Source: Nitrospirota bacterium (GTDB lineage: Bacteria > Nitrospirota > Thermodesulfovibrionia > UBA6902 > DSMQ01). From it: a DNA stretch of 64,000 bases. The translations under genes and the position numbers were made by a program. Numbering within the stretch: position 1 is the first letter of the stretch; each line of letters begins with the position of its first letter. The stretch covers positions 3,491 to 67,490 of the forward strand of contig JACQXF010000078.1 in NCBI GenBank assembly GCA_016208855.1, given 5' to 3'. This document shows positions 58,479 to 59,807 of this stretch, in pieces. The notes under the pieces are model-generated. The model had not been told where the DNA came from and made no database searches. It was given only the letters and a program-made list of their open reading frames with translations.

Positions 58479-59807
58479 ATGAAAAGAGTTGTAATTACAG
58501 GCATGGGAGCTCTCACACCCCTTGGTAACGACCTTGAAACCACATGGAAAAATTTAAAAAAGGGACTCTCAGGCATAAATCACATCTCCAAGTTTGACGC
58601 CTCATGCCTGTCAAGCAAAATCGCAGGAGAGCTTAAAGGCTTCTCGCCTGAAAACTACATGCCTAAGAAAGATATTTTGAGGCTTGACCCTTTTGTGCAT
58701 TATGCCATAGCAGCAGCTATAATGGCAGCAGAAGATGCGGGGCTGATTCAGCAGAGCACAGAGCACAGAATACAGAATACAGAATACAGAATACAGAACA
58801 CAGATAAAAAACTCAAAATTCAAAACTCAAAACTCAAAACTCCGTTTGTCACTCGTCACTCGTCACTTGAGAAAGCAGGCGTTATCATCGGCTCAAGCAG
58901 GGGAGGAATTTCAACGATTGAAAGGGAACTTTTAAAACTCAAAATTCAAAACTCAAAACTCTCATCTTATCTTATGCCCTCAACAACGATTGGCATGGCT
59001 TCATCGTATATATCCATGAGGCTTGCAATAAAAGGCCCCACTATCGGCATATCCACAGCCTGCGCTTCAGGGGCAAATGCCATCGGAGAGGCCTTTAAAC
59101 TTATCCGTTACGGAGAGGCTCAGGTAGCGCTTGCCGGCGGCTCAGAGGCGCCTGTATGCAGGCTGTCAGTAGGAGGATACGGGGCATCAGGCGCACTTTC
59201 AAGGAGGAACAGCGAGCCTGAGAAAGCAAGCAGGCCATTTGATAAAGACAGAGACGGCTTTGCAATATCCGAGGGTGCAGGCGTTGTCGTACTTGAAGAG
59301 CTCAATCATGCCCTGAGACGAAATGCAAGGATTTATGCTGAAATTTCAGGTTACGGAACTTCTTCAGATGCCTTTCATCAGACAAAGCCGCTGAGTGATG
59401 GCGAGGCACTTGCAATAAAAAAGGCGTTAAGCGATGCAAAGGCCTCTAAAGATGACGTGGACTATATCAATGCCCATGCCACAGGGACTGTGCTTGGAGA
59501 TAAGGCAGAGGCAGAGACTATAAAAAAGGTCTTTGGCAAACGAGCCCCCAGGATACCAATAAGCGCAAGCAAATCAATGCTTGGCCATATGCTTGGCGCT
59601 GCAGGGGCAGTAGAGGCTATAATCACAGCCCTCTCTATAAACAAAGGGGTTATAACACCAACGATAAATCTTGATTGCCCTGACATAGTTTTTAACCCTG
59701 CCTGCTTCCGTAAACCTACAAAGGCTGATATTAATACAGCTATCTCAAACTCCTTCGGCTTCGGCGGCGTTAATGCGGTATTGGTGATAAAAAAATTTCG
59801 ATCTTGA
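58479..59807 (+). CDS. fabF: 3-oxoacyl-ACP synthase II (KAS II) with in-frame tandem-repeat segments
   Basis: Active-site ATACASG, the HATGT and SKSMLGHMLGAAG motifs (Cys-His-His triad). 58751-58869 and 58930-58959 are heptamer tandem repeats replacing or expanding the segment between AEDAGL and GVIIGS and the GPRRxSPF loop. Confidence 0.85.
   Translation: MKRVVITGMGALTPLGNDLETTWKNLKKGLSGINHISKFDASCLSSKIAGELKGFSPENYMPKKDILRLDPFVHYAIAAAIMAAEDAGLIQQSTEHRIQNTEYRIQNTDKKLKIQNSKLKTPFVTRHSSLEKAGVIIGSSRGGISTIERELLKLKIQNSKLSSYLMPSTTIGMASSYISMRLAIKGPTIGISTACASGANAIGEAFKLIRYGEAQVALAGGSEAPVCRLSVGGYGASGALSRRNSEPEKASRPFDKDRDGFAISEGAGVVVLEELNHALRRNARIYAEISGYGTSSDAFHQTKPLSDGEALAIKKALSDAKASKDDVDYINAHATGTVLGDKAEAETIKKVFGKRAPRIPISASKSMLGHMLGAAGAVEAIITALSINKGVITPTINLDCPDIVFNPACFRKPTKADINTAISNSFGFGGVNAVLVIKKFRS
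58751..58869 (+). repeat. In-frame heptamer tandem repeats inside fabF (cagaata x~6, aaaactc x~5, actcgtc x3)
   Basis: cagagcacagagcacagaatacagaatacagaatacagaatacagaacacag, then aaaaactcaaaattcaaaactcaaaactcaaaactc, then gtcactcgtcactcgtcacttg. Confidence 0.85.

Follow-up and report, generated by a model that had tools for sequence, protein, structure and literature searches.

In-frame heptanucleotide repeat arrays in two loops of a KAS II paralog gene of Nitrospirota

Tandem repeats with a 7-nt unit are expected to break a reading frame and are usually described as intergenic. How, then, do several of them come to lie in an enzyme gene that stays open? The question is raised by a gene for a FabF-like KAS II in a 64,000-nt stretch of DNA from a Nitrospirota bacterium (GCA_016208855.1, contig JACQXF010000078.1, positions 3,491 to 67,490 of the forward strand), which we call the window. 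The host is a sulfate reducer, and the gene is a member of a divergent family of KAS II paralogs in the Thermodesulfovibrionia. Its arrays are coding, orthologous, long-lived and stacked. They are in frame, free of stop codons, quantised in steps of 7 aa and found clade-wide, and they lie in two loops where the fold accommodates them: the loop that leads from a helix to the GVIIGSSRGG strand (site 1) and the helix and loop before SxYLM (site 2). The arrays are probably translated, nearly neutral heptanucleotide simple sequence repeats (SSRs), of the kind known as short tandemly repeated repetitive sequences (STRRs) or long SSRs, which lie in permissive loops of a non-essential paralog and are kept in frame by selection. 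Such microsatellites can persist over long evolutionary periods inside ordinary enzyme genes, and here they mark two places in the KAS II fold that permit insertions.

Four arrays in one open reading frame

Four arrays of head-to-tail tandem units were called in the gene by Tandem Repeats Finder (TRF), with a period of 7, 2.9-5.7 copies and 90-100% matches (Table 1). A preliminary description of the gene had reported stacked heptamer repeats, and the peptide that it quoted is their translation. Arrays A, B and C take up 108 of the 129 nt of hypervariable site 1, a place where insert-free relatives have 5-9 codons in our alignments. For array A, TRF called ACAGAAT x5.7 at 58765-58804, and CAGAGCA units prolong the array to the left. 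Since each of the three arrays is 2 mod 3 in length, the frame of site 1 is kept only by their summed length.

Array D stands at site 2, where the paralog family has ...EKxLLKGKPF, and leaves the length unchanged compared with that family. The 28-mer that it shares with array B includes the variant unit AAAATTC, and the two copies lie 126 nt apart in the same frame, each encoding KLKIQNSKL. This recurrence had been noticed before, but it was placed 2 nt off (58932-58959) and translated as LKLKIQNSKL. The second copy had also been said to replace a normally conserved GPRRxSPF loop without a length change. Compared with B. subtilis FabF, the ...TKGPRRV stretch is indeed covered, but SSYLMP, the equivalent of SPFFVP, is retained and there is one residue fewer. 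The length is unchanged only within the gene's own family, where the loop does not read GPRRxSPF in the first place.

The window as a whole is rich in such repeats. It contains 13 period-7 arrays compared with 1.3 in 30 dinucleotide shuffles (about 10-fold), and 6 arrays with a score of at least 40 compared with 0.0; over-representation in the source genome is judged on these 64 kb. Five of these six are within open reading frames (ORFs): the fabF paralog accounts for four and hisC for one. The sixth (CGTAAGA) is intergenic. RNA structure at the tract did not exceed that of shuffles (z = 0.23) and the tract matched no Rfam family. Intron, intein and structured-RNA readings were rejected, as there is no fold signal and no Rfam match and the tract keeps the frame in all aligned homologs. 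A minus-strand ORF at 58611-58823 was also dismissed because it is only the stop-free reverse of array A.

The sequence itself was compared with two independent short-read assemblies from Logan. One contig (L001, SRR12113406) is 100% identical to window positions 58810-61537 and the other (L210, SRR12113402) to 58815-62528. Both match exactly over 58815-61537, which holds the right part of array B, array C, a unique spacer and array D. Sequence error, one of the explanations first offered for the repeats, is excluded from 58815 onward, and it is unlikely in the rest of the tract given the matching architecture in relatives. The N-terminal 89 residues of the window protein are those of a member of the same protein family; no database record of the exact 442-aa protein was found. 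Array B is where both contigs fail: L210 begins inside it (L210 1-30) and L001 switches partner inside it (L001 5001-5080), so arrays of this length tangle k=31 graphs. Tracts of this kind cause breaks and false joins in short-read assemblies, and they can pass for errors or pseudogenes. Upstream of array B, contig L001 has a bamA gene and then an AGGGACG array, fused to the fabF paralog at mid-gene. Downstream of bamA there is probably a comparable AAAACTC array. The 277-aa protein P0014 that comes from this fusion is an assembly product or a rearrangement.

A KAS II paralog with two variable loops

The product carries the N and C ketoacyl-synt domains of Pfam, with the N domain match broken into two stretches, and its match to TIGR03150 (fabF), also in two stretches, barely passes the cutoff (495.8 bits vs 493.75). 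Arrays of this kind thus break up hidden Markov model matches and bring real enzymes close to annotation cutoffs. Among solved structures, the best relatives are the FabF proteins of B. subtilis, N. meningitidis and P. aeruginosa (E about 1e-110, 40-43% identity). Catalytic Cys195 (TACASG), His333 (NAHATGT), His370 (GHMLGAAG) and Lys365 align to PDB 4LS5 together with the FGFGG loop, and the four residues are invariant in an alignment of 120 sequences, which consists of the window protein and 119 near-full-length relatives that are 61-71% identical to it. The preliminary description had stated that the gene has no pseudogene features; the ORF is intact and the TACASG and HATGT catalytic residues are present.

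An AlphaFold2 model built from the 120 sequences reached a predicted local distance difference test (pLDDT) score of 72 and a predicted template modelling (TM) score of 0.80; an earlier run with 32 sequences (pLDDT 48.8) was set aside for it. The top 50 Foldseek matches were all KAS II-type (49 bacterial FabF/KAS II and one plant mitochondrial KAS), with E down to 2.4e-44 and TM scores of 0.75-0.81 against FabF structures (top match). Low confidence is limited to sites 1 and 2 and two other loops, and the rest of the model has a FabF-like fold. The pLDDT falls below 50 at residues 95-121 (site 1) and 142-168 (site 2). Site 1 has no alignment to B. subtilis FabF, falling between chain residues 104 and 113.

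The gene had been taken for an essential condensing enzyme, a view that its surroundings and residues do not support. Its upstream neighbours are a PilZ gene and, beyond it, a cysK-like gene; downstream lie dsrC, a gene for an RsbRD_N protein and dsrMK. The downstream part (dsrC/RsbRD_N/dsrMK) is shared with a close relative, L082. The housekeeping fabG-acpP-fabF context and the GSGIGG and GPRRxSPF residues are absent. An arginine that is invariant in the paralog family (Arg141, in GSSRGG) stands at the FabF pocket residue Ile108 (GSGIGG), which is mutated in PDB 4LS6, and because of this replacement the substrate of the paralog is probably not that of FabF. The paralog further has HATST/HATGT where FabF has HGTST, and LLKGKPF where FabF has GPRRxSPF. 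It resembles FabF/KAS II (TIGR03150; PDB 4LS5, 2GFW, 4B7V) in its thiolase fold, Cys-His-His triad plus Lys and GFGG loop, and differs in its lack of linkage to acpP, its Arg at the Ile108 position, its LLKGKPF loop and its hypervariable inserts. An uncharacterised FabF paralog with an arginine in the acyl pocket thus adjoins dsr genes in two related genomes, those of the window and L082.

A canonical FabF exists alongside it. In a Nitrospirota FabF at L006, found in fabG-acpP-fabF-rnc, the corresponding motifs are GSGMGG and GHRKISPFF and there is no insert. The best 120 relatives of this protein carry the same taxon labels (Thermodesulfovibrionia, Nitrospirae), and the full-length ones are all 412-416 aa and insert-free, compared with 400-467 aa for the 119 paralog relatives. 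In a scan of GTDB with the protein the matches listed were mostly generic FabFs, and L002 and L006 were used from it. Canonical and paralog proteins occur as pairs, by accession number, within the same GenBank submissions (MBI5099290/MBI5099936, MBI5675131/MBI5675655 and RJQ50675/RJQ50323). A check for a second intact fabF, which had been advised, found one in the related metagenome-assembled genome (MAG) GCA_016215115.1, where JACRLN010000033 carries fabG-acpP-fabF-rnc without inserts and the paralog lies on JACRLN010000050, with 46% identity between the two proteins. From these relatives we infer a canonical copy in the genome of the window as well. We class the gene with the KAS II paralogs rather than calling it the FabF, because of its PilZ/dsrC context, Arg141, the LLKGKPF-type loop and the separate acpP-linked copy in the related MAG. 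In the canonical cluster of the related MAG (L208 4856-4955), the acpP-fabF intergenic region has the octamer arrays GAGAAGAT x5 and CTTCTTAA x3.8, and the canonical fabF has none.

How variable are the two sites? Site 1 ranges from 5 to 57 aa and has at least 16 aa in 92 of the 120 sequences; about a quarter of the family has little or no insert and keeps all catalytic residues. Site 2 is 17 aa in 111 of the 120, with outliers from 10 to 38 aa. This variation, together with the low model confidence at both sites, supports the loop plasticity that was suggested at first. The site-1 peptides are what heptamers yield when read in three frames (GVRGQGS, EHRTQNT, SDLRPQT, SAVSSQQ, NSKLQT/NSELIT, SLVTRHSSL). 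They are biased to S, Q, N, L and H, and it is the DNA periodicity, not the peptide sequence, that is conserved.

Arrays at site 1 were confirmed in the DNA of seven relatives (Table 1), two of which also have small palindromes there. CAGnnnn arrays orthologous to array A occur in L205, L206, L207 and L082/L083, and the AAAACTC/AAAATTC array of the array B type is found again in L205. In L084, too, this end of site 1 has GTCACTC, the unit of array C, and many homologs show it as SLVTRHSSL peptides. The order CAGnnnn ... AACTCnn ... GTCACTC recurs in the relatives' DNA, and when sequences are classed by rough peptide motifs, all 16 that have both the CAGnnnn and the GTCACTC type have the CAGnnnn type first. 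This recurring order fits old arrays in concerted evolution, with unit variants supplanting one another.

Site 2 has independent CAGAACA-type arrays in relatives. They are expanded in L084 and L207 but length-neutral in L206/P0017 (IIRTQNTASRL) and P0043, so the overwriting in the window is not unique. In both the window and L207 the gene has its site-2 unit at site 1 as well. The native site-2 sequence of relatives (CTTTTAAAAGGCAAACCC) looks like AAAACTC units.

Palindromes are nested in site 1 of two relatives. One in L002 (3310-3345, CTGTAGGGGCAATTCATGAATTGCCCCTACAG) is translated in frame as VGAIHELPLQ, and an element of the CCCTCCCCCTTGAGGGGGAAGGG type in L207 (425-475) is translated in frame as PSPLRGKGKGGGE.

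Close relatives were compared for recent change. Arrays are identical in most members of clusters with at least 90% identity. P0050 and P0253, which are at least 90% identical, differ by SDLRPQT, 7 aa or three units (21 nt) in frame. P0254 has a different array on a near-identical N-terminus. Along with P0251 and P0252 it is an N-terminal fragment of 103-105 aa that ends at the arrays. P0251 and P0252 lie on short contigs (579-3253 bp). Since assemblies break at arrays, the fragments were most likely cut by contig ends. The window MAG, L001 and L210 do not differ in arrays C and D or in the part of B that all three cover, copy number included.

Table 1. Coordinates and units of the gene, its arrays and the repeat arrays compared with them. 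Coordinates refer to the window unless a locus is named.
Feature	Coordinates	Strand	Description
KAS II (FabF-like) paralog gene	58479..59807	+	intact uninterrupted ORF, 442 aa
Hypervariable site 1	58746..58874	+	43 codons / 129 nt between ...EDAGL and AGVIIGS
Array A	58752..58804	+	CAGAGCA x2, CAGAATA x4, CAGAACA x1; 53 nt
Array B	58808..58842	+	AAAACTC x5.0, unit 2 = AAAATTC; 35 nt; TRF
Array C	58848..58867	+	GTCACTC x2.9; 20 nt; TRF
Array D (site 2)	58934..58961	+	AAAACTC x4.0; TRF; exact 28-nt copy of 58808-58835
Array in hisC (15789-16838)	16289..16315	+	GTCACTC x3.9; encodes SLVTRHSSL; loop before VVVDEAY strand
CGTAAGA array	17434..17463	+	x4.3; intergenic, downstream of hisB; unit contains TAA
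AGGGGCA array	36539..36559	+	x3; in ADP-forming acetyl-CoA synthetase-type protein (35613-37751), inter-domain linker
ATGAGCC array	47277..47300	+	x3.4; 3' end of methyl-accepting chemotaxis protein gene (47296-49284, - strand)
L082 site 1			GGGGTCA, then CTGTCAA x4
L083 site 1			GGGGTCA
L084 site 1			AAGTGCAA octamers, then GTCACYC x4
L205 site 1			CAGGAGT x5, then AAAACTC/AAAATTC, then GTCACTC
L206 site 1			CAGACNT x8
L207 site 1			CAGAACA, GC-rich palindrome, then AACTCCA
L002 site 1			AAGTGCGG x3, then palindrome CTGTAGGGGCAATTCATGAATTGCCCCTACAG
28-mer in L096	261-288		metagenome contig
28-mer in L101	509-536		metagenome contig
28-mer locus in L178	1712-1792		metagenome contig

Heptamer arrays beyond the gene

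Heptamer arrays inside genes are a genome-wide and clade-wide pattern, an extent that the preliminary description overlooked (hisC, the acetyl-CoA synthetase linker, ApbE, BamA). The clearest case is hisC, whose product scores 351.7 bits against TIGR01141 (cutoff 276.55). Among the 120 sequences recovered, the loop is 22 aa in 39, 24 aa in 34, 29 aa in 21 and 31 aa in 8. These sequences include P0275, which is 100% identical to the window HisC and on record from NCBI and Logan. The loop grows in clean steps of +7 aa (...ESTSSLSI to ...DLTSSLVTRHSSL), so in many species a single-copy biosynthetic gene carries this array at orthologous positions. In the ADP-forming acetyl-CoA synthetase-type protein the array falls in a linker where Pfam domains stop at residue 293 and restart at 323 (Succ_CoA_lig / Ligase_CoA_2). 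Units that contain a stop codon (CGTAAGA, ATGAGCC) occur only outside ORFs.

Relatives have further array sites in and after bamA (L001, L083) and in lpxI (L083). In total, 48 period-7 TRF rows were found in 145 kb of related loci compared with 61 in 914 kb of other bacteria (79 loci), a density about 5-fold higher in a comparison that is biased by the choice of loci. The ApbE N-terminus carries GTTCACT x10 in L083 (5-77), and in L084 (4430-4582) it carries AGAAGTGC x4.6, then AGTCAGG x5, then ACTCGTT x4.6. From left to right, this order in L084 resembles site 1 of the fabF paralog of the same genome.

The exact 28-mer reaches well outside the lineage. It was found in at least 120 unrelated metagenome contigs (L085-L204; examples in Table 1), many of them human gut and Bacteroidales-like, with a GC content of 0.45-0.56. 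The AAAACTC unit family is therefore not lineage-specific. In these contigs the AAAACTC/AAAATTC/ATAATTC arrays are intergenic, are interleaved with GC hairpins of about 20 nt such as aatcggctttgccgacaattc, and often stop 3-15 nt before an ATG start codon.

Which known repeats do the arrays resemble? Heterocystous cyanobacteria reportedly carry heptanucleotide STRRs, and long SSRs are said to occur more generally, in work attributed to Mazel in 1990 and to Mrazek in 2007 (as cited in PMC4692102). The arrays described here share with them head-to-tail 7-nt units, several unit families, many loci and adjacent arrays of different units. STRRs and long SSRs are described as mainly intergenic, whereas our strongest arrays are inside conserved enzyme genes, in frame and orthologous across many species of another phylum. 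Small dispersed repeats (SDRs) nested in Nostoc heptamer arrays are said to have been described by Elhai in 2008. The palindromes between heptamer arrays at site 1 of L002 and L207 may be comparable; the window itself has no nested element.

Heptamers are over-represented among the longer SSRs of some bacteria and form a documented class (PMC4692102, PMC4679880). The TAACTGA direct repeats of Beggiatoaceae, Cyanobacteria and Bacteroidetes have stop codons in all forward frames and are almost entirely intergenic or in 5' untranslated regions, and stops in the unit decide where arrays are placed (MacGregor 2015, PMC4679880). Our arrays are also heptamer direct repeats with a patchy spread across phyla, and the Bacteroidales-like AAAACTC/AAAATTC arrays likewise end just upstream of start codons. 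Unlike TAACTGA, the units in the gene are stop-free and read through as protein. The GGGAATC/GGGGAYT heptamers of Xanthomonas and Nostoc, which form G-quadruplexes (Rehm 2015, PMC4692102), show a similar genome-specific enrichment and a copy number that varies between relatives; our units are A/C-rich or mixed, have no G-quadruplex potential and are coding. Tandem repeats in Borg ORFs give low-complexity, probably disordered segments at the same places in homologs, as here, but the Borg units have a length divisible by three (Schoelmerich 2023, PMC9879509). With a 7-nt unit the peptide repeats every 7 aa, over three units, and only the total length preserves the frame. No published description of heptamer arrays in Nitrospirota was found in our literature searches.

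Origin and persistence of the arrays

The explanation that we consider probable is as follows. Replication slippage would create and resize the arrays and concerted evolution would homogenise them, with occasional copying between nearby or microhomologous sites through template switching or gene conversion. Array D may be such a copy of array B, placed onto native sequence like CTTTTAAAAGGCAAACCC. Purifying selection would merely filter the outcome. Because a 7-nt unit runs through all three frames, the survivors would be arrays whose units are stop-free in all coding-strand frames and whose total length is divisible by three, and therefore change would come in quanta of 7 aa (21 nt). Such a filter yields hypervariable loops quantised in 7 aa. 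The Ser/Gln/Asn/Leu/His-rich peptides are probably disordered and nearly neutral, in an enzyme that retains its catalytic residues. Stacking of stop-free arrays may also give robustness, since a neighbouring array could offset a slip of one unit.

Several points weigh against this explanation. The length-neutral overwriting of native codons (window site 2, P0017, P0043) is poorly explained by slippage alone. The recurrence of GTCACTC, AAAACTC and CAGAACA across genes, sites and phyla is also hard for slippage and allows for a copying mechanism. Arrays have lasted at one site in species that are about 65% identical, a long time for neutral microsatellites, and they may be maintained. No independent assembly gives the copy numbers of array A or of the left portion of array B. 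Array translation and enzyme activity are things that we infer from sequence, and the surface exposure of both sites is predicted from low pLDDT and length variability.

Could the arrays have been pasted in rather than grown in place? A tiny mobile element, similar to an SDR, a miniature inverted-repeat transposable element (MITE) or a repetitive extragenic palindromic (REP) sequence, might have carried them, or templated ectopic repair or gene conversion might have drawn them from a genomic pool of arrays. The exact 28-nt copy at site 2, its neutral length and the palindromic mini-elements nested in L002 and L207 would be in keeping with such pasting. The same unit families also appear at other genes and sites, with CAGAGCA/CAGAACA at site 2 in L084 and L207 and at site 1 in the window, and the third locus downstream of bamA has at least 30 nt in common, enough for a k=31 mis-join. 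However, unlike MITEs, REP sequences and SDRs, the window arrays have no terminal inverted repeats or stable hairpin: no meaningful or relevant inverted repeats were found at the tract, and no target-site duplication flanking the arrays was evident by eye. No transposase, RAYT, reverse transcriptase or XisH/I was found among the 50 ORFs of the window that were scanned. The hisC array seems to have been born from native Ser-Ser-Leu codons in a single 21-nt step. The unit AAAATTC shared by arrays B and D was considered as proof of copy-paste and downgraded, given the 28-mer in at least 120 unrelated contigs; mixed AAAACTC/AAAATTC arrays often give that unit order, so identity of the 28-mer is weak evidence of copying. 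On balance we regard pasting as unlikely. A broader version, an active and unit-specific process that writes or copies heptamer arrays in Thermodesulfovibrionia and perhaps in Bacteroidales, cyanobacteria and Beggiatoaceae, strikes us as distinctly unlikely. It might be carried out by templated repair, by a polymerase or primase, or by a mobile system not yet recognised. If it existed, native codons in permissive loops would be repeatedly turned into arrays at unchanged length, and units common to genes, sites and phyla would reflect shared machinery, not independent slippage.

The remaining explanations concern what the arrays do, or whether they are real. Disordered repeat loops could serve the paralog in partner binding, localisation or regulation, as has been argued for the functional disordered regions made by tandem repeats in Borg ORFs (PMC9879509). 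The persistence of arrays at these two sites throughout a deep clade (site 1 has at least 16 aa in most of the family), a conserved array order and a biased composition would suit such a role. Its prospects are poor, and we hold it to be decidedly improbable, since insert-free family members keep all catalytic residues, only the DNA periodicity is conserved, the same arrays lie in unrelated proteins and intergenic DNA, and the unit is not a multiple of three like the selected Borg repeats. A phase-variable contingency switch, in which adding or removing a single 7-nt unit would change the frame and so switch the paralog off or on, had been proposed at first. The unit is not divisible by three, the tract lies within an ORF, some N-terminal fragments (P0251, P0252, P0254) stop at the arrays, and heptanucleotide tracts mediate phase variation in Haemophilus (PMC2651432, PMC8262952). 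The arrays are short (3-6 units), though, the three assemblies do not differ in copy number, and the one clear difference between relatives is an in-frame 7 aa. No frame-shifted full-length relative was found among the 119 near-full-length paralog proteins, although a protein search may miss such alleles. The fragments are probably contig-end cuts, a cytoplasmic lipid enzyme would be an unusual switch target, and the same arrays occur in hisC. The locus does not behave as a hypermutable contingency locus, and a switch is very improbable. An assembly or sequencing artefact is extremely improbable. Repeats of 28-35 nt do confuse short-read assemblers, as the breaks in array B illustrate, and neither array A nor the exact protein has an independent copy on record. 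Against this stand the complete identity of two assemblies to the window over 58815-61537, which in L210 runs to 62528, the intact, in-frame ORF, and the many independently assembled relatives that share the architecture.

Two minor features of the window were seen along the way. The AGGGGCA array is preceded by a short imperfect palindrome, gcgactctacgcgaagactcgc. At 6731-13909 there are five consecutive paralogous AAA_14/DUF4143 ATPase genes on both strands, one of which lacks the ATPase domain, with an HTH_11 gene (12172-12543) among them and a PIN-domain gene (14104-14505) just downstream.

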